A DNA stretch of 64,000 nt from Devosia sp. (GTDB lineage: Bacteria; Pseudomonadota; Alphaproteobacteria; Rhizobiales; Devosiaceae). Below the pieces are notes generated by a model. The model was not told where the DNA came from, made no database searches, and worked only from the letters and a program-made list of their open reading frames with translations. Location: the NCBI GenBank assembly GCA_016713105.1, contig JADJPS010000020.1:62278-126277 (forward strand). Reading direction: 5' to 3'. The translations under genes and the position numbers were made by a program. Below, piece after piece: positions 54,708 through 64,000 of this stretch; positions within the stretch are counted from its first letter, which is position 1, and every line of letters starts with the position of its first letter.

Positions 54708-55471
54708 CGCGCGAACAGTTCGGCGAGGATCGAGCCCCGGGGCGGTTCCGTGGCCTTGAGGTGATGCAGCTTCTCGTTCCACAGGTGGAGGGTGAGGGTG
54801 TCTGCGGTGACGATGTCGTCGAGCCGCAGCGTCGGATCGTAGAGGCGTTCGGCGGCGCGCGGGTGGAGCGGGTAGAACACCTCGGTCGGCCGGGCGGCGG
54901 CCGCCAGCCCGTGACGAACGGCCAGCGCCGTCATCCCCTTGGGCCCGAACGTGCCGCGGGGCAGGTCCCTGGGCGCCACCCGCCGGCCGAGCAGGGTCCT
55001 CACCCTTGCTGCCGGCGCCCGGTGGAACGGCACCCAGGGCGGTGCACGTCCGCTCTCGAAAGCCGCCAGGGCATCGGCGAGGACCGGCGAGTCCGGCGCC
55101 AGGCGGAGCACCGCATTGTTGATGTAGTCGGCCGATTCCCAGCCGGCGACGAAACCGCCATCGAGCTCGAAGGGGCGGAGGCAGACGACGTCGGTGTCGA
55201 CCCACAGCCCCGCCGATTTCCGCATCAGGAGCAGCCGGAAATAGTCCGCGAACAGCGTCAGTGCCGGTGGCGAGCCGGCGATGCGCGCGAGCTCGGACCG
55301 GTCGGCGACCGCGCCGGCATCCCGCAGCTCGACGCCGGGTGGCAGGTTGCCGATCTCGCCAAAGGCGTACAGGGCGACCGGATGGCCGTGGGCGACGAAC
55401 GAGGCGAGGCACATCCGCTCCATCCGTCCCAGCGCCGATCCGACCCACAGGGTCACGATCCGGCTGGTCAC
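54695..55471 (-). CDS. DXD-motif glycosyltransferase (GT32/capsular synthesis-like)
   Basis: TLWVG..LGRMERMCLASF, LFADYFR, GLWVDTDVVCL, LHLWN. Confidence 0.85.
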   Translation of the reverse strand: MTSRIVTLWVGSALGRMERMCLASFVAHGHPVALYAFGEIGNLPPGVELRDAGAVADRSELARIAGSPPALTLFADYFRLLLMRKSAGLWVDTDVVCLRPFELDGGFVAGWESADYINNAVLRLAPDSPVLADALAAFESGRAPPWVPFHRAPAARVRTLLGRRVAPRDLPRGTFGPKGMTALAVRHGLAAAARPTEVFYPLHPRAAERLYDPTLRLDDIVTADTLTLHLWNEKLHHLKATEPPRGSILAELFARYPD

Positions 55472-55561
55472 GCCACCGACCGGCAACAAGGCAGGGGAGT
55501 CATTCCGATTTCGTCCGATCCGTGGTCTAAGCTGAGCCACATCGATAGGGCGCTTCCCGAC

Positions 55562-57055
55562 TTGCAGCAAGCCAGACCCAGTTCTCCCGCCGGTTTCACT
55601 GACCTTGCCCTTGCCGTGGTGGCGATCGCCTTTGCGGTGCGGGTCACGGTTGCGGCCCTCGTCGGCCTTGACGGCGACGAGGCCTACTACGCGATGTGGT
55701 CCGTCTGGCTGGCGCCGGGCTATCTCGACCATCCGCCCGGGATTGCCCTTTTCATCGCGGCGGGACGGCTGGTGCTGTCGGACACCTATCTCGGCGTCCG
55801 GCTGTTCGCGCTGCTGGCGTCGCTGGGGACGGTGATCGCCCTCTACCGGATCGCGAGGCTGCTGCTGCCGCAGCCGTCCGCACCCGCCCTCGTCGTCATC
55901 TGGTACAGCCTCACACTCACCGCCGGCATCAGCTTCGTCGCCACCCCGGATGCGCCCTCGACGCTGTTCTGGACGCTGTCGATCTGGGCGGCCGCCGAGG
56001 CGATGCACCGCCGGCGCCCCGGCTGGTGGCTGGCCGTCGGCCTGTTCGCCGGCCTCGGGCTCGTTTCCAAGTACACCAATGCCTGGCTGGGCATCGGCCT
56101 GCTGCTGTTTCTGGTCGCTACCCCGACCGGACGGGCCGAACTGCGCCGCTGGCAGCCCTGGGCCGGCGGACTGCTGGCGCTGGCGGCCTTCTCGCCGGTG
56201 ATCTGGTGGAATGCCGAGCGGGACTGGCGCTCCTTCCTGTTTCAAGGGATGCGAGTGGTCTCGGTCGAGGACCAGTCGGGGCGCTCGATCCTCGAGTCGA
56301 TCGCCGGGCAGTTCCTGGTCGCTGGCCCGATCCTCGTCGTGGCGCTGGCGCTGGGCCTCGGCTGGTATGCGCTCCGCGGTCGCCGGGCCTTGCCGGGCCT
56401 GGCGCTGCCGGTGCTGACGACGCTGCCGCTGCTCGCCTATTTCGCCGTCCACAGCCTGCACGCCAAGGTCGAGGCGAACTGGCTGCAGCCGGTGCTCCCG
56501 GCGATGACGCTGATCGGCGTCGGCTGGCTGCTGGCGGCCGTGCGCCGCCGCTGGCTGCGGGTCACGCTGCTGGTGGGGCAGGCGGTGTTCGGGCTGCTGC
56601 TGGTCGGCTTCGTTTCCATCCAGGCGCTGCTGCACCCGTTCGACCTCAGGGAGCTGGACCGGACCCGCTACCTGCGCGGCTGGGCCGAGCTATCTGTGTC
56701 CGTGCGGCAGATGGCCGACGCGGTCGACGCCAAGGCCATCTACACCCTGGGCCAGTACCAGCTGACGGGCGAACTGTTCTTTCACGGGCGGGCCGCCGGC
56801 GACCCGCGTCCCGTGCGGGATGTCGGGCAGGCGATCCGCTACGAGTTCATCCCGGCGACCGAGCGCCTGCCGCACCTCTTCCCGGCCGTGCTGGTGGTGC
56901 CGTCCGGGCGTGCCCCCGGTGCGACCGTGCGCGGCGATCACTTCACCGGCTCGCGCCTGCTCGGCACGCTGCTGCGCGGCGCGCCCGGCGACACCCCCGA
57001 ATCGTACGCGGTCTACCTGGTCGAGGGCGCCGGCCCGGCACTCCCCGGCGAATAG
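55562..57055 (+). CDS. GT39/ArnT-like integral membrane glycosyltransferase
   Basis: DEAYYAMW, GYLDHPPG, TPDAP, GLVSKYT, FSPVIWWN; TTG start inferred. Confidence 0.87.
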   Translation: MQQARPSSPAGFTDLALAVVAIAFAVRVTVAALVGLDGDEAYYAMWSVWLAPGYLDHPPGIALFIAAGRLVLSDTYLGVRLFALLASLGTVIALYRIARLLLPQPSAPALVVIWYSLTLTAGISFVATPDAPSTLFWTLSIWAAAEAMHRRRPGWWLAVGLFAGLGLVSKYTNAWLGIGLLLFLVATPTGRAELRRWQPWAGGLLALAAFSPVIWWNAERDWRSFLFQGMRVVSVEDQSGRSILESIAGQFLVAGPILVVALALGLGWYALRGRRALPGLALPVLTTLPLLAYFAVHSLHAKVEANWLQPVLPAMTLIGVGWLLAAVRRRWLRVTLLVGQAVFGLLLVGFVSIQALLHPFDLRELDRTRYLRGWAELSVSVRQMADAVDAKAIYTLGQYQLTGELFFHGRAAGDPRPVRDVGQAIRYEFIPATERLPHLFPAVLVVPSGRAPGATVRGDHFTGSRLLGTLLRGAPGDTPESYAVYLVEGAGPALPGE

Positions 57056-58278
57056 GGCGGAGCCGGGTCGCGCACGAAGGCCACGAACACCATGGTCATC
57101 ATCGCATACTGCACCGTGTGGAATTCGAAGCCGAGCATGATGCTGGCCAATTGGAACACTGCGAATCCCACGACGAGCACCGCTGCGAAATACAGTCGGC
57201 TGACGAACTGGGAATCCCTGGGCGTTGCCAGCACGGCGAGGATGGGCGCGATCGTCAGCGCGACGAAAGCCGCGATGCCGAAAACGCCGGCGCCGACGGC
57301 GAAACTCATTGGCCCGTTATGCAACTGGCGGAAGCCAGTCATCATCTCGACCTCGTCGGGGGGGACATGAGGGTAGACCGCCTTCACCATGTCGCCCCAG
57401 CCATGTCCAAAGAGAGGTGACTCAAGGAATGCGCCGAGGCCGCCCGAGAGCATCAGCAGCCGCTGCCGGGTGGACTCATCGATCTGTTGGCCGGCCAGCA
57501 CCCGCCCGGCCGAATCAAAGGCACTGATGGCGCGCTCGAAGCCGAAGAAGTACGCGGCGGCGGCCAGCAGGGCGACGACCGCGACCGCAACGGCGCCAGC
57601 AAGGAGGATCTGACCCTTGCGCCGCGCCGTCGCCAGGGCAAAGCCGAACGCGACGAGCGCCAGCGCCGGTGCGCCCAATAGAGCGCCGCGGGTGCCGCTG
57701 AGAAGAACGGCGCCGATGGCGAGGATTGGTCCGAGCAGGAACGGCCAGCGCCGATGGGCCCCTGGCGCAAAACAGCCCACGAGCGCCAGAAACCCCAGGA
57801 TCATCGAGGTGTGGGCATAGTCGTGGGCTCCCATCAGAGGTTGGCCGACGCGCGTGTAGCCGAGGAGGATCACCTGGACGACGGCGACAAGCCCGGCAAT
57901 GATCACGCCGGTGAGGGATAGCCGGGCAACGATCAGCGCGCCATCGGGCCGGGCGGTTCGCTCGAGTTGCCAGCGGAAAGGAATGGCGATGAGGAACGGT
58001 GCGAAGTTGAGGATGTAGAGCGGGTCGCGCCACTCGTCGCTGGAGGCAAGCAGTGCAACTGCCAGGGTGATCACTGAACCAAGGAAGATGGTGTCAACAG
58101 GACTGCGGCTTGCAAGGCGTTGCGCCTGCCGGATGCTCGGAGTCAACAGCGCGAGAAGGGCGGCGAGGAGCACGAAGTAGGTGGTGAGCCGACCGACGGC
58201 GCAGACCAGCGCAAAAAGCAGGCCGATTGCAGCATAGCCCGCCACCCGGACGTAGTTCGGTACTGCCTCGTCAGGCAT
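57013..58278 (-). CDS. O-antigen ligase (WaaL/Wzy_C-like) family membrane protein
   Basis: Many TMs, [27 protein letters not shown]. Confidence 0.8.
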
Positions 58279-59131
58279 CCCGGGGGTTCCCCGTCAAGCG
58301 CGACCTGGCGATCGCATCCAGCTGGATGAGTTCGCGCAGCAGGCCCTCGAGCGCGTCGCGCGGGATCATGTTGGCGCCGTCCGAGGGGGCATTGTCCGGG
58401 TCCTCGTGGGTCTCGATGAAGACCCCCGCCACCCCCACGGCCACCGCCGCGCGGGCGAGCACGGGCGCATACTGGCGCTGTCCGCCCGATGACTCGCCGC
58501 GCCCGCCGGGCTGCTGCACGGAGTGGGTAGCATCGAAGATCACCGGCTTGCCGGTTTCCGCCATGATCGGCAGGCTGCGCATGTCGACCACCAGCGTGTT
58601 GTAGCCGAAGCTGGTGCCGCGCTCGGTGAGCAGGACCCCCGAGGCGCCGGCCCGGTCGAGCTTGTCGGCGACGTTCTTCATGTCCCAGGGGGCAAGGAAC
58701 TGCCCCTTCTTGACGTTGACGATCCGTCCGGTCTCGGCGGCCGCGACCAGGAGGTCGGTCTGGCGGCTGAGAAAGGCCGGGATCTGCAGAATATCGACCA
58801 CCTCGGCGGCGATGGCGCATTGCTCGCGCTCGTGCACGTCGGTGGTCACCGGCAGTCCGGTCTGGCGCTTGATCGCCTCGAAGATCGGCAGCGCCTCATC
58901 GAGCGTAGTGCCCCTGAAGCTCCTGGCGCTGGTGCGGTTGGCCTTGTCGAAGGACGACTTGTAGATCACCGCAACGCCGAGACGTTCGCCCAGTTCCGCC
59001 AAGAACCCGGCACTCCGCAGTGCATGGTCGCGGCTTTCGATCACGCAGGGGCCGAGGATGAAGGCCAGCCGGTTGGCGCCGCCGATCCGGATCTCCCGGC
59101 CGCCGGGTGTACTCAGCTTAACTTCCTGCAT
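58271..59131 (-). CDS. kdsA: KDO 8-phosphate synthase
   Basis: [53 protein letters not shown]. Confidence 0.97.
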
Positions 59132-59149
59132 TTCACGAACTCTCACTCT

Positions 59150-59767
59150 CTAGTCCGGCCGCCGGCCCCAGTCCAGCAACCGAATACGCCTGTCACAGTC
59201 AAGTTCTATCAAGGCATAACTTGCGGTGCGAAGCTTGTAGTTGCCGATCTTGTCCACTGATTTTGAGTCAAAGGCCAGCAATGCAAAGCGTGCCGCGCCG
59301 TTACTGGTGACGAGCAGGATCGCGTCGTCGGGATGCTCGGCGCACAGGCTCGCCGCGAAGTCGCGCCAGCCCGGCAGCCGCCAGTCGGCGCCGGCGTTCC
59401 AGCCATCGGGAGCGATCCCCTTCTCGTCCCAGAGCGCGATGGCGGAACCGCCGATGCGGGCGACGACCTCGTCCTCCGTCCGGTTCTCGTCGGGGCCATG
59501 ATCGATCTCGGTGAGCAGCGTCAGGGTCTCGAGCAGAGGCGGATGCACCTGGCGGGCAAGGATCGCCTCGGCCGTCGATCGGGTGCGTCGCAGCGGGCTG
59601 CTGAAGGCCCGCGCGAAGGCGACCCGGCCCGCGAAGTGCTGCCCGAGCGCCTCGGCCTGGGCCACGCCGGTCGTTGTCAGCGGCAGGTCGGTGGCGGCGC
59701 CGATCCGCCGCGGCGTCTCTCCGGCTTCGAAGGTGTTGCCGTGACGCACGATATAGAGCCGCGTCAC
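59150..59767 (-). CDS. Histidine phosphatase superfamily protein (candidate KDO 8-phosphate phosphatase)
   Basis: YIVRHGNT, SSPLRRT, LTEIDHG; GTG start overlaps the kdsB stop. Confidence 0.88.
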   Translation of the reverse strand: MTRLYIVRHGNTFEAGETPRRIGAATDLPLTTTGVAQAEALGQHFAGRVAFARAFSSPLRRTRSTAEAILARQVHPPLLETLTLLTEIDHGPDENRTEDEVVARIGGSAIALWDEKGIAPDGWNAGADWRLPGWRDFAASLCAEHPDDAILLVTSNGAARFALLAFDSKSVDKIGNYKLRTASYALIELDCDRRIRLLDWGRRPD

Positions 59768-60588
59768 GTTCGCCTCGGCCAGTCGATGAACGGATCGCCG
59801 TGCTCGGCGATCAGCCGCTCGGCGCGCGCGACGTCGGCAGGGCTGTCGATGCCGCTCATGGTGATGCGGGCCGGCGCCACCGCGACCGCCCGGACGCTGA
59901 GCCCGATCTCGATCAGCCGCAACTGCTCGAGGCCCTCGAGTTGCTCGTAGGCCGATGGCGGGGTCGCCTCGAACGCCGCGAGCGCCGCCGGCCGGTAGCA
60001 GTAGAGCCCGATATGCTGCAGCACCGGGGAGAGTGCGGTCTGCTGGCGCAGGGCGTCCTCGTTGCGGATGAAGGGAAGGATTGCCTTCGAGAACCAGAGG
60101 GCGCGCCCGTCTGCCGCGCGGATGCAGGTGGTGCCGCTGGCGGGCGCGGCGAGCTTGTGGGCGCGCAGCGCATCGAGACGGGCCCAGTCCAGCTGCACGA
60201 CCGGCGTCGTGACATCGGCGCCGCTGGCGCGGGCCGCGGCAAGCATCTCGACGATGTGCTCCGGCGCCGTGAACGGCGCATCGCCCTGCAGGTTGACCAC
60301 GAGGTCGTAGCTGCGGCCAGTTGCCCGCATCGCCGCGAGCGTCCGCCCCGAACCCGAGGTGATGGCGGGACTGGTGAGCACCGTATCGAGCCCCCAGCCG
60401 CTCGCCGCCGCGACGATCCGCGCGTCGTCGGTGGCGACGACGATGTCGACCCCCCCGGTACGGCCCGCGGCCTGGTGCGCAACCGCTGCGACCCGCTCGA
60501 GCAGGGCCCGGCCGCCGACGGGGTGCAGCGGCTTGCCGGGGAGGCGGGTCGAGCCGTAGCGCGCCGGGATGACGATCAGGTCCGTCAC
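59764..60588 (-). CDS. kdsB: CMP-KDO synthetase
   Basis: VIPARYGSTRLPGKPL, VVATDD, VNLQGD, LWFSK, QHIGLY, EGLEQLR. Confidence 0.95.
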   Translation of the reverse strand: MTDLIVIPARYGSTRLPGKPLHPVGGRALLERVAAVAHQAAGRTGGVDIVVATDDARIVAAASGWGLDTVLTSPAITSGSGRTLAAMRATGRSYDLVVNLQGDAPFTAPEHIVEMLAAARASGADVTTPVVQLDWARLDALRAHKLAAPASGTTCIRAADGRALWFSKAILPFIRNEDALRQQTALSPVLQHIGLYCYRPAALAAFEATPPSAYEQLEGLEQLRLIEIGLSVRAVAVAPARITMSGIDSPADVARAERLIAEHGDPFIDWPRRT

Positions 60589-60589
60589 C

Positions 60590-61584
60590 TCAGGCGAGAC
60601 CGACACGCAGGCAGTCGTGCAGATGGACGATGCCGACCGGCCGCCCGCCGTCTGCCGCGAAGATCGCGGTGATCCTCGGCGCGACGTCGGTCATCCGGCG
60701 CAGCGCCTCGCTCAGCAGCGCCCCGGCCTCGATGGTGCGCGGTGCGCGCGTCATGACCGCGGCCGCGGTCTCCTCGAGCAGCCGTTCCGCCATGTGACGG
60801 CGCAGGTCGCCATCGGTGATGATGCCGACAAGGACGCCATCGGCATCGACGACACCCGTGCAGCCGAAGCCCTTGGACGTCATCTCGAGAATGGCGCTGC
60901 CGACGCTGGTCTCGAGCGATACCAGCGGCAGCCGATCGCCCGCATGCATGACCTCGCCGACGGTCAGCAGCGCGCTGCCGAGCGTGCCGCCCGGGTGGAA
61001 GACGTGAAAATCCGCCGCCCCGAAGCCGCGCCGTCGGAGCAGCACGACTGCCAGTGCATCGCCGAGCGCCGCCATCATGGTGGTCGAGGTCGTGGGGGCC
61101 GAGGTGATACCGCAGGCCTCGTCGACGGCCGGCAGGCGCAGCACGAAGCGGGCGGCCCGGCCGAGGCGCGCGTGTCGGCATTCTGCGTGACCAGCACCAG
61201 CGGGATGTCGAACCGCACGCAGTAATTGGTGAGGTCCTCGAGTTCGCGGGTCTCGCCGGATTTCGAGAACATCAGCACCACGTCGCTGGAGGTGATCATC
61301 CCCAGATCGCCGTGGCTCGCATCGGCGCCGTGGACGAACTGGGCCGGCGTTCCGGTCGAGGCGAGCGTTGCCGCAACTTTGCGCGCGATATGCGCGCTCT
61401 TGCCCACGCCGGTGAGCACGACACGGCCGGCGGCCTGCTGGATCAGTTCGACCGCGGCGGCGAAGCTGCCGTCCAGGGCCGCGGCAAGCGCCTCGAGACC
61501 CGCCGCCTCGAGCCGGATGGCGGCGCGGGCCTCATCGAGGACGAGGCTCCGCAGGCTGGCATCGATGACAGGAGACTGGCGCAC
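60590..61584 (-). CDS. kpsF: Arabinose 5-phosphate isomerase (KpsF/GutQ/KdsD), frameshift near 61170
   Basis: TGVGKSAHIARKVAATLASTG, ASHGDLG, SKSGET; after the shift APTTSTT, FHPGGTLG and two CBS domains. Confidence 0.92.
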
Positions 61585-61696
61585 CGGGCTGGAGTAGCAG
61601 CAATCGAGAAGCCCCCGCAAGCGTGCTGGCCGGCGTTGAGTTCCGCGCCGCGACCCGCTAGTCAGGCGCACCTCCCTCGATCCGGGACGCCGCGGC

Positions 61697-62953
61697 GTGA
61701 AGCGCACAACGACAGTCGGCTGGCGAGCCTACGGCGCCCTCGTGCGGGTGCTTTCGGCCGTGCACTACGGGGTGCTGTCGCCGCTCTCGGCCAGCGACGA
61801 GGGCGGCTGGCAATGGCTGCGCCGACGGCTGACGGCGGTGCCACCGCCTGCCGCGGCCGGCCGGAGAGTGTGGATTCACGCCGTGTCGGCCGGCGAATCC
61901 AAGGTTGCCGAACTGCTGCGCCGACACCTGCTGGCCGAGGCGCCGGAGCTGTCGGTCGTTCTTTCCGCCACGACCTACTCGGGCTTCGCGCGGGTCAGCC
62001 GGATCGCCGGCGAGGCGGCGAGCTTCGTCATGCCGCTCGATACCCTAGCCGCGCAGCGCAGCCTGTTCGCGACCCTGCGTCCCGACCTGCTGGTGCTGGT
62101 CGAATCCGAGTTCTGGCCGGCGCAGTTCGCGGCCGCCGCCGAGGCCGGCGTGCCGGTGGTGGTGGTCAACGCCACGATGTCGGAACGCTCGTTCGCCCGG
62201 CATCGCCGCTTCCCGCTGGTGGCGCGGCGCACGCTGCTGCAGGCCCGGCGGATCCTTGCCCAGGACGAGCCCACGCTGCAGCGCTATCTGGCGCTGGGCG
62301 TGCCGGCCGAGCGGCTGGCGATCAGTGGCAACCTGAAGCTCGCGCCCACCGGCGCCGTCACCGCGCCCCGCGTCGATGCCGCGCCCACCGTTGTGTTCGG
62401 CAACATCCACGAGGCCGAACTCGCGGCGCTCGCCCCGGCAGTCCAGACGCTGCGCCGGCAGCGACCGGAGGTGCGACTGGTGCTGGTGCCGCGCTATCCG
62501 GGCAAGCTGAGTGCGGCGACCCTGACAGCGGCGTTCGGCACCGAACTGGTGCGGGTGACGGATGCCGCCGAGGCCGTGGCGGGGCCACTCGTCTGGGTCG
62601 ACCGGATGGGTGCCCTGGCGGGCCTGTATGCGACGGCGACGGCCGGAGTCGTCTGCGGCACCTTTGCCCCGATCGGCGGCCACGACCTGGCGGAACCCCT
62701 GCACATGGGGGCGGCGAGCCTGTACGGTCCGCACGTCGAGCGCCAGCGGGCCCTCGACGTCGCCCTGCAGGCCATCGGGTGTGCGCGGCAGGTGCGGAAT
62801 GCCGACGACCTCGTCGCGACGCTCGGCGAGGTGCTGGACCGGCGCGAGGACCGCGAGGCGATGGTGGGTCGCTTCCGCGCGCTCTCCGAGGAGGCCGGCG
62901 TCCGGCTGGCCGAGATCGCCGGGGATCTGGTTCGCCTCCTGCCGCCTCAGTAG
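61697..62953 (+). CDS. waaA: KDO transferase
   Basis: WIHAVSAGE, SATTYSG, LVLVESEFWP, VNATMSERS, GNLK, LVPRYP, GGHDLAEP. Confidence 0.92.
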   Translation: MKRTTTVGWRAYGALVRVLSAVHYGVLSPLSASDEGGWQWLRRRLTAVPPPAAAGRRVWIHAVSAGESKVAELLRRHLLAEAPELSVVLSATTYSGFARVSRIAGEAASFVMPLDTLAAQRSLFATLRPDLLVLVESEFWPAQFAAAAEAGVPVVVVNATMSERSFARHRRFPLVARRTLLQARRILAQDEPTLQRYLALGVPAERLAISGNLKLAPTGAVTAPRVDAAPTVVFGNIHEAELAALAPAVQTLRRQRPEVRLVLVPRYPGKLSAATLTAAFGTELVRVTDAAEAVAGPLVWVDRMGALAGLYATATAGVVCGTFAPIGGHDLAEPLHMGAASLYGPHVERQRALDVALQAIGCARQVRNADDLVATLGEVLDRREDREAMVGRFRALSEEAGVRLAEIAGDLVRLLPPQ

Positions 62954-64000
62954 ACCGGGCGGAAGTTCTCGCCCCAGTAGAGGCGATAGCGTCCCAGTTC
63001 GCGACCGAACCGCACGATCGGGATCTCCTTGTAGAGCGTGACCGTCTCGAACTGCGCGTCGATGACCTCGCGCTGGCGCTCGTCGTGCAGCACGACGAGG
63101 GCGTCCTGCCCGACATGCGCCCTGGTGTCGAACCAGTAGTGGAACTCGCTGCGCGCCGGGTTCACCGCCGCGACGTCCTTGTCGTCGAGAGCAAAGCCGA
63201 CCGTGCTCGCATACTCCCACTTGGAGGTGGCGATGAAATCGGGCTTGAGATCGTCGATGGCGGCCCGGATCGGCAGCTCGATCTCGTTCCAGCCATAGTA
63301 GCGCGTGCGGGTCGGATCGGGACGGTCGAGCAGCAGGATGACCGGGAAGATCGATGAGGAGATCACGTAGAGCACCGAAATCAAGGTGCCGAACAGGGTG
63401 TGCCCCCAGAACAGCAGGCGCGAGCGCATCGCCTTGCCGAGGAACGGCAGCAGCAGCACATAGGCGCTGACATTCCACCAGAAGAACAGCTGCTGGGTCA
63501 GGGCGACGGTGAGGAAGACCAGGCTCGAGACCCAGAAGAACCAGCTGCCCAGTCCCCACGCGGTGCGCTCGAACGGTGCGGAGGGGCGGCTGAGGACGAA
63601 CCGGACCAGGCCCCACATCATGAACGGGGAGGTGGTCAGCGCGGTCTGCATCAGGAATTCGACGATGTGGATCCAGGTGAAGGCCCGCAGGAAGCCTGCA
63701 TCGTGCCGATCCACCAGGTGGAATTCGAACGAGGCGAAGCCGTTCTGGATGTTCCAGATCAGAATCGGCGAGGCCACCGCGATGGCGAGCAGCGCCGCCG
63801 CATAGAGGTGGGGATTCGCCAGCAGCCGCCGCAGCCTGGGGCTGGCGACGATGTAGAGGCCGAGCGCCACGCCGTAGAGCAGCGTGTTGTACTTGGCGAG
63901 CGCGGCAACGCCCATGAACAGGGCGCCGAGATAGAGGTCGCCGAGCCAGGCCTTCCCCTCCGCCCGCACCGCCATCAGGTAGCGGATGAGGAAATGCGCG
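62947..64000 (-). CDS. Second GT39/ArnT-like glycosyltransferase, starts beyond the right edge
   Basis: AALAKYN, ASPILIWN..GFASFEFH, WNVSAY, multiple TMs. Confidence 0.82.
   Translation of the reverse strand, partial: AHFLIRYLMAVRAEGKAWLGDLYLGALFMGVAALAKYNTLLYGVALGLYIVASPRLRRLLANPHLYAAALLAIAVASPILIWNIQNGFASFEFHLVDRHDAGFLRAFTWIHIVEFLMQTALTTSPFMMWGLVRFVLSRPSAPFERTAWGLGSWFFWVSSLVFLTVALTQQLFFWWNVSAYVLLLPFLGKAMRSRLLFWGHTLFGTLISVLYVISSSIFPVILLLDRPDPTRTRYYGWNEIELPIRAAIDDLKPDFIATSKWEYASTVGFALDDKDVAAVNPARSEFHYWFDTRAHVGQDALVVLHDERQREVIDAQFETVTLYKEIPIVRFGRELGRYRLYWGENFRPVY

Follow-up and report, generated by a model that had tools for sequence, protein, structure and literature searches.

Synthesis of CMP-Kdo (cytidine monophosphate-activated 3-deoxy-D-manno-octulosonate) is a core pathway of the Gram-negative envelope and a drug-target pathway. 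It has four enzyme steps, catalyzed by the arabinose-5-phosphate isomerase KpsF/KdsD, the Kdo 8-phosphate (KDO8P) synthase KdsA, a KDO8P phosphatase, and the CMP-Kdo synthetase KdsB. The gene for the described phosphatase, KdsC (YrbI), usually lies beside kdsD and lptC. The four-step pathway is also given in PMC5615194, where the missing KdsC step of Rickettsia and many other divergent bacteria is described as an open pathway hole. Here we describe a gene for a histidine phosphatase that lies between kdsB and kdsA in a 64,000-nucleotide stretch of DNA from Devosia sp. (contig JADJPS010000020.1; referred to as the window). We suggest that its product is probably a KDO8P phosphatase that is not orthologous to the HAD-type KdsC and replaces it, with KDO8P as the substrate that we infer.

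Histidine phosphatases have taken over steps from HAD enzymes in other pathways. PspA is a dPGM-like histidine phosphatase that carries out a step done elsewhere by the HAD enzyme SerB. GpgP (Rv2419c), the mycobacterial glucosyl-3-phosphoglycerate phosphatase, has the canonical pair of catalytic His residues and, like PspA, replaces a HAD phosphatase. By analogy, the Devosia protein may parallel the PspA-for-SerB and GpgP cases; these precedents are general background, and the support for the parallel in our analysis comes from structural matches. The AlphaFold2 (AF2) model of the phosphatase (pLDDT 94.8, pTM 0.91) has a dPGM-like alpha/beta fold, and the nearest solved folds found with Foldseek are GpgP Rv2419c, PspA, TIGAR, PhoE, and CobC (TM score ~0.8, 20-25% identity). 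The protein shares its fold with the PspA/PspB phosphoserine phosphatase of Hydrogenobacter thermophilus (PDB 4ij5; TM ~0.82). However, PspA has another substrate, keeps the second catalytic His, and is only 22-23% identical, and the candidate scores 44 bits on NF045917 (cut-off 350). GpgP (PDB 4pz9) also ranks near the top in structural similarity (E 7.6e-15, TM 0.81). Like the candidate, it belongs to the histidine phosphatase superfamily; it serves a single biosynthetic pathway, in which it dephosphorylates a sugar-acid phosphate. It differs from the candidate in substrate and genomic context and in sequence (24% identity), and the candidate has an S-N-G motif, described below, in its active site.

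The candidate resembles KdsC (HAD-IIIA; TIGR01670; EC 3.1.3.45) in its proposed reaction, in its place between KdsA and KdsB, and in being encoded among Kdo genes. The enzymes themselves are different. KdsC is a Rossmann-like HAD protein with an Asp nucleophile and Mg2+, whereas the candidate has an alpha/beta histidine-phosphatase fold and a predicted His nucleophile and belongs to a superfamily that is metal-free. There is no sequence similarity between the two, and we found no HAD match in the candidate protein. In contrast to the usual position of kdsC, the candidate gene sits behind kdsB.

We found no KdsC homolog in this Devosia genome. The initial annotation of the window, which proposed that a different fold performs the KdsC step, had named a genomic kdsC as something to look for. 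The best match to the KdsC model TIGR01670 (cut-off 106.95 bits) in this genome, which is 95.5% complete, scored only 22 bits and was inside an 841-amino-acid frame of the size of a P-type ATPase. Likewise, none of 101 genomes of Devosiaceae contained a KdsC above the cut-off. The genes of the module are arranged in the order kpsF-kdsB-phosphatase-kdsA-waaL-like, with waaA divergent from kpsF. Because kpsF, kdsA, kdsB, and waaA are all in the module and there is no KdsC, the phosphatase step has no other candidate.

We found that the phosphatase gene is linked to kdsB in many genera. Within the genus, it was between kdsB and kdsA in all 12 carriers. Using motifs of the family, we found 80 named loci in Devosia, Novosphingobium, Sphingomonas, Erythrobacter, Altererythrobacter, Henriciella, Hyphomonas, and others. 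The phosphatase gene was immediately downstream of kdsB in 77 of the 80 (Devosia, Sphingomonadales, and Hyphomonadaceae) and adjoined at least one kds gene in 79. Gene orders vary around it. With the phosphatase gene as X, Devosia has kpsF-kdsB-X-kdsA, Sphingomonadales have kdsA divergent from kpsF-kdsB-X, and Hyphomonadaceae have kdsA-X-kpsF or kpsF-X.

The same linkage was seen in a class-wide sample of 401 alphaproteobacterial genomes from about 209 families, 36 of which carry the phosphatase family. We compared the loci of 35 carriers, leaving out the genome of the window; these come from about 30 genera, and their phosphatases are 26-46% identical to that of the window. kdsB was directly upstream in 32 cases and separated by one extra gene, a kinase, in 2; the order was reversed in 1, and 1 was cut by a contig end. 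Taken together, the pairing with kdsB was seen in 34 of the 35 loci. In these carriers kdsA is frequently distant from the phosphatase gene, and what is conserved is therefore the pair of kdsB and the phosphatase gene. kpsF and the Kdo acceptor genes also shift position. In a phylum sample, kdsB was upstream in 5 of 6 new loci, and one genome from outside the Alphaproteobacteria also has the phosphatase gene after kdsB. Among 116 pairs, the phosphatase start was at a median distance of ~0 from the kdsB stop; 31 pairs were at -4, 11 at -1, and 93 within 30 nucleotides (nt).

The linkage between kdsB and the phosphatase gene (more than 110 loci in many genera) is far beyond chance. Conservation of the kds neighborhood, which the initial annotation had raised as a check on its proposal, is very strong and survives changes in gene order. 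We conclude that the phosphatase gene is almost certainly tied in function to KdsB and CMP-Kdo synthesis. The linkage fits the KDO8P step, because the product of that step is the substrate of KdsB.

The linkage is also kept with different acceptors of Kdo. The Devosia module holds waaA and a ligase-like gene, which indicates that the acceptor there is lipid A. In Erythrobacter sp. NAP1 (L075:2084-7451), kpsF-kdsB-phosphatase is followed by a gene for a 557-amino-acid Capsule_synth protein (KpsC/KpsS-type) and a GT1 gene. This arrangement suggests a Kdo-containing glycoconjugate in Sphingomonadales that is independent of WaaA. Because kdsB and the phosphatase gene stay together both with WaaA and lipid A and with Capsule_synth, the tie is to the supply of CMP-Kdo and not to one glycoconjugate or a core decoration.

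A protein from a metagenome assembly (P0270, 530 amino acids) has a KdsB-type cytidylyltransferase domain (residues 35-262) joined to an SNG phosphatase (from residue 312). Its cluster has no other member and comes from a 4-kb contig; the protein could be a real fusion or a read-through artefact, and we count it only as a hint.

We found that the phosphatase belongs to a distinct family of histidine phosphatases. The protein matches PF00300 (His_Phos_1) over residues 4-193 with 101.5 bits (cut-off 21.7). None of the specific NCBIfam models (June 2026) matched it, and scores on the CobC, PspA, GpmB, and SixA models were far under the cut-offs. In public sources, close homologues (53-99% identity) go by no more specific name than "phosphoglycerate mutase", "PhoE", or "histidine phosphatase family protein". 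Searching 1.84 billion representative proteins with a profile yielded 334 clusters at E <= 1e-30. When the family profile was run on the phylum-wide genome sample, the matches of at least 94 bits all had the SNG motif and kds neighbors, and those of at most 64 bits had neither. The generic branch-1 histidine phosphatases (PhoE/YhfR, CobC, GpmB, and TIGAR) share PF00300, the RHG motif, the second Arg, and the Glu proton donor with the candidate. They differ from it in this gap in score, in lacking the family's own motifs, RHGNTF, E-x-D-Y/H-G, and (T/S)-S-N-G-x-x-R-F/Y, and in lacking the exclusive linkage to kdsB.

The gene is under purifying selection. In comparisons with two relatives, dN/dS was 0.28-0.33 for the phosphatase gene, 0.17-0.18 for kdsB, and 0.10-0.17 for kdsA; selection on the phosphatase is thus looser than that on KdsB or KdsA.

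The active site is conserved but atypical. We aligned 34 sequences of the family from about 30 alphaproteobacterial genera. Invariant in all 34 are R8, H9, G10, F13, G23, D27, P29, L59, R61, E87, G91, W113, P120, S155, and G157. N11, T12, N156 (32/34), R160, T181, W123, and W200 are nearly invariant. The hallmarks of PF00300 are present: the RHG motif with the nucleophilic His (R8, H9, G10), the second Arg (R61), and the acidic proton donor (E87). However, the "xHG" that follows the fourth core strand in the superfamily, and with it the second catalytic His, is absent; residues 153-157 read VTSNG instead. The initial annotation had taken VTSNG as a sign of a distinct subfamily, and S-N-G indeed marks the whole kdsB-linked clade.

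It had also assumed that Asn replaces the His, which our alignment does not favor. The aligned site reads A-H-G-N-S-L-R, A-H-G-G-I-L-R, and G-H-N-P in three paralogues from the same genome, and (T/S)-S-N-G-x-x-R in the phosphatase family. The AF2 model has a strand at 149-154, coil at 155, and a helix from 156. Three features, namely how far the site lies from the conserved Arg, how it aligns with the paralogues, and where the strand gives way to the helix in the model, most likely place Ser155, not Asn156, at the position of the second His, with Asn156 at the position of the Gly that follows. Which of the two would reach the phosphate was judged from alignment and secondary structure. We also considered His90 as a stand-in for the missing His and rejected it; His90 occurs only in the Devosia-like clade, and most members have Tyr.

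Based on these features, we propose how the enzyme may work. A cytoplasmic phosphatase, made together with KdsB from overlapping reading frames, would remove the 8-phosphate from KDO8P, the product of KdsA, and thereby supply free Kdo to KdsB. As expected for the superfamily, His9 would attack the phosphate to give a phospho-histidine intermediate. Arg8, Arg61, Asn11, and the family-specific Ser155-Asn156 pair, in place of the second His, would hold the phosphate, and Glu87 would donate a proton to the leaving C8 hydroxyl. Water would then free the phosphate. These residue roles, and any physical partnership with KdsB, are ones that we infer.

We found that carriers of the phosphatase generally have KdsA and lack KdsC. 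KdsA was present in all 36 carriers of the class sample, and none of the 36 had a KdsC-like gene. Among five further carriers, four had no KdsC-like gene, and the fifth has a TIGR01670 match (G767:C9:101943-102389) in a 416-amino-acid frame. Overall, a KdsC-like gene was absent from 40 of 41 carrier genomes. The phosphatase gene is kept in genomes of 0.9-1.6 Mb. Five genus-mates (G017, G041, G048, G090, and G093; 92-99% complete) have neither the phosphatase nor KdsA, KdsB, and WaaA. The presence of the phosphatase therefore follows that of the entire Kdo module.

KdsC itself is uncommon in the class. KdsC-like genes were found in 20 of the 401 genomes, 10 of them above the cut-off. Several alphaproteobacterial "KdsC" matches are C-terminal domains of fusions (384-416 amino acids) between a PseF/NeuA-like cytidylyltransferase and a HAD domain. 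One of three fusions examined (L162:1061-2212, L164:2332-3531, and L165:2252-3475) scores higher on a model of KDN-9-phosphate phosphatase than on that of KdsC. True KdsC is probably even rarer in Alphaproteobacteria than these counts show.

A KDO8P phosphatase is the simplest reading of our results. The protein is a predicted active phosphatase whose gene remains translationally coupled to kdsB even between distant relatives; it is confined to genomes that make Kdo, and its carriers lack KdsC. The idea of the initial annotation that a different fold does the KdsC step is upheld by context, linkage, and the absence of KdsC, and activity on KDO8P is the predicted part of it. Somewhat less firmly, but still on the favorable side, we suggest that the subfamily with Ser-Asn for the second His serves specifically as the KDO8P phosphatase in 30 of 308 alphaproteobacterial genera sampled (about 10%), among them Sphingomonadales, Hyphomonadaceae, some Devosia, and several lineages whose genomes are very small. 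No other non-HAD enzyme of EC 3.1.3.45 would precede it; it would be made 1:1 with KdsB, and may pass Kdo to it directly.

Several observations weigh against this assignment. Approximately 300 of 354 KdsA-positive Alphaproteobacteria have neither KdsC nor the phosphatase family. In five complete genomes of this kind (L170-L174; G164, G110, G148, G106, and G113), kdsB is followed by pheA, the gene for prephenate dehydratase (PF00800). Evidently, Kdo synthesis can proceed without a dedicated, recognizable phosphatase, or a further enzyme does the step. E. coli can do without KdsC, according to work cited in PMC5615194. The lack of overlap between carriers and KdsC in the class sample is near chance (~1.8 genomes expected), and the rarity of KdsC throughout the class makes the anti-correlation weak. 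The anti-correlation proposed in the initial annotation was seen (0/36 carriers, then 1/5, the one being a fusion-type HAD), but for this reason we give it little weight. In one lineage (L134:3547-5615 and L150; G118 and G430), a gene for a Zeta_toxin/AAA_33-type P-loop kinase of 211 amino acids is inserted between kdsB and the SNG phosphatase gene, with overlapping ends. This hints at other phospho-chemistry, and the simple model leaves the kinase unexplained. Loss of the second catalytic His could make activity low or altered. Finally, the lone KdsB fusion that we found is the singleton P0270.

Some of these observations might also indicate that the enzyme acts on another phosphorylated intermediate of Kdo or another envelope sugar, such as a kinase product or a phosphorylated CMP-sugar or Kdo derivative, or that it serves as a valve on arabinose-5-phosphate flux. 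Unspecific phosphatases would then do the KDO8P step, as they presumably do in most Alphaproteobacteria. The kdsB-kinase-phosphatase operon variant, the ~300 KdsA-positive genomes that manage without a recognizable KDO8P phosphatase, and the atypical active site all speak for such a role. However, the kinase is in only 2 of ~120 loci, and every other lineage links the phosphatase to kdsB, whose product consumes free Kdo. The canonical pathway has no further phosphorylated intermediate between KdsA and KdsB, and genomes that have lost the gene have also lost KdsA, KdsB, and WaaA. We consider a different substrate unlikely.

It is less probable still that the protein has little or no catalytic activity and is not the phosphatase of the pathway, but uses its histidine-phosphatase fold to bind KDO8P, Kdo, or KdsB and so regulates KdsB or serves as its scaffold. 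Loss of the second catalytic His across the whole family would fit this notion, as would the tight translational coupling, which suggests 1:1 production with KdsB. But Arg8, His9, Arg61, and Glu87 are invariant in the aligned sequences, which is not expected of a pseudoenzyme, and the conservation of Ser155 (invariant) and Asn156 (32/34) suggests a functional substitute in the phosphate pocket. We give very little credence to a general housekeeping phosphatase or mutase (PhoE-, GpmB-, or CobC-like) that has simply been carried along with kdsB by descent. The public names of its relatives ("phosphoglycerate mutase" and "PhoE") and the weak NCBIfam matches to CobC, PspA, and GpmB point that way, but those three scores are all far under the cut-offs, and the generic His_Phos_1 proteins with low family scores (at most 64 bits) have neither the SNG motif nor kds neighbors. 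Moreover, the linkage to kdsB holds at 26-46% identity and through rearrangement of all other neighbors, and the gene vanishes with the Kdo module. A KDO8P phosphatase is the reading that we prefer.

The features of the Kdo module in the window are listed in Table 1. The open reading frame, the PF00300 match, and the profiles of the neighboring genes confirm a histidine phosphatase between kdsB and kdsA, as first annotated.

Table 1. The candidate phosphatase gene and its neighbors in the Kdo module of the window
Feature	Coordinates	Strand	Remarks
Candidate KDO8P phosphatase, SNG-type histidine phosphatase (P0001)	59150-59767	-	GTG start; 205 amino acids; PF00300
kdsB, CMP-Kdo synthetase	59764-60606 (alternative start 60588)	-	NF003952, 224.7 bits (cut-off 193); PF02348
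kdsA, KDO8P synthase	58271-59146 (alternative ATG start 59131)	-	NF003543, 408.3 bits, and TIGR01362, 396.4 bits, both above cut-offs
kpsF/kdsD, arabinose-5-phosphate isomerase	60590-61707	-	Frameshifted; SIS and CBS parts in separate frames
Wzy_C / O-antigen-ligase-like membrane protein (waaL-like)	57013-58278	-	PF04932, 63 bits
waaA, Kdo transferase	61697-62953	+	PF04413, 156 bits; NF004388/NF004389, ~184 bits, below cut-offs

The genes on the minus strand are tightly packed. The kdsB stop and the phosphatase start overlap by 4 nt, and the kdsA stop overlaps the waaL-like gene by 8 nt. The gap from the phosphatase gene to kdsA is 3 or 18 nt, depending on the kdsA start chosen, and that from kpsF to kdsB is 1 nt, given a kdsB start at 60588. 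With suitable starts of kdsB and kdsA, these junctions reproduce those first reported for the locus (1-nt gap, 4-nt overlap, 18-nt gap, and 8-nt overlap).

The position and strand of kpsF in the operon are also as first described, but a frameshift breaks the gene in this assembly: the SIS part is read in the frame of 61075-61707 and the CBS part in that of 60590-61144. Compared with two relatives (L047 and L048; KpsF 87-91% identical), there are 2 surplus bases near 61178. This is the sole copy of kpsF in the genome. Either the assembly is wrong at the frameshift (61150-61200) or the arabinose-5-phosphate isomerase has really been inactivated.

Genes for PMT_2 proteins (ArnT-like GT-C glycosyltransferases) are on both sides of the module, at 54761-57055 (plus strand) and 62947-63975 (minus strand). 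The Kdo module therefore sits within a wider envelope-glycan region. The GC content is flat (65-73%) over 44-64 kb of the window, and composition gives no signal of a foreign island.

The survey of Devosiaceae also gave an observation on lipid A. LpxC was present in 100 of the 101 genomes and KdsA in only 14, and the five Kdo-less genus-mates keep LpxC. This suggests that most Devosiaceae make lipid A without any recognizable Kdo pathway. A literature search found no published account of Kdo-less lipid A in Devosiaceae.

We found no published histidine-phosphatase KDO8P phosphatase in a full-text literature search, which covered few subscription journals. The finding is a new functional variant within a known superfamily. 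It narrows the KdsC question and does not close it, as most Alphaproteobacteria, with pheA after kdsB, still have the hole. If the assignment is true, the Devosia protein would be the first enzyme for EC 3.1.3.45 outside the HAD superfamily and would add another histidine phosphatase that displaces a HAD phosphatase. It would also correct thousands of "phosphoglycerate mutase / PhoE" annotations. The active site, with Ser-Asn for His, is a natural variant for mechanistic study, and the family provides a concrete, cloneable candidate for the KDO8P step in defined lineages.

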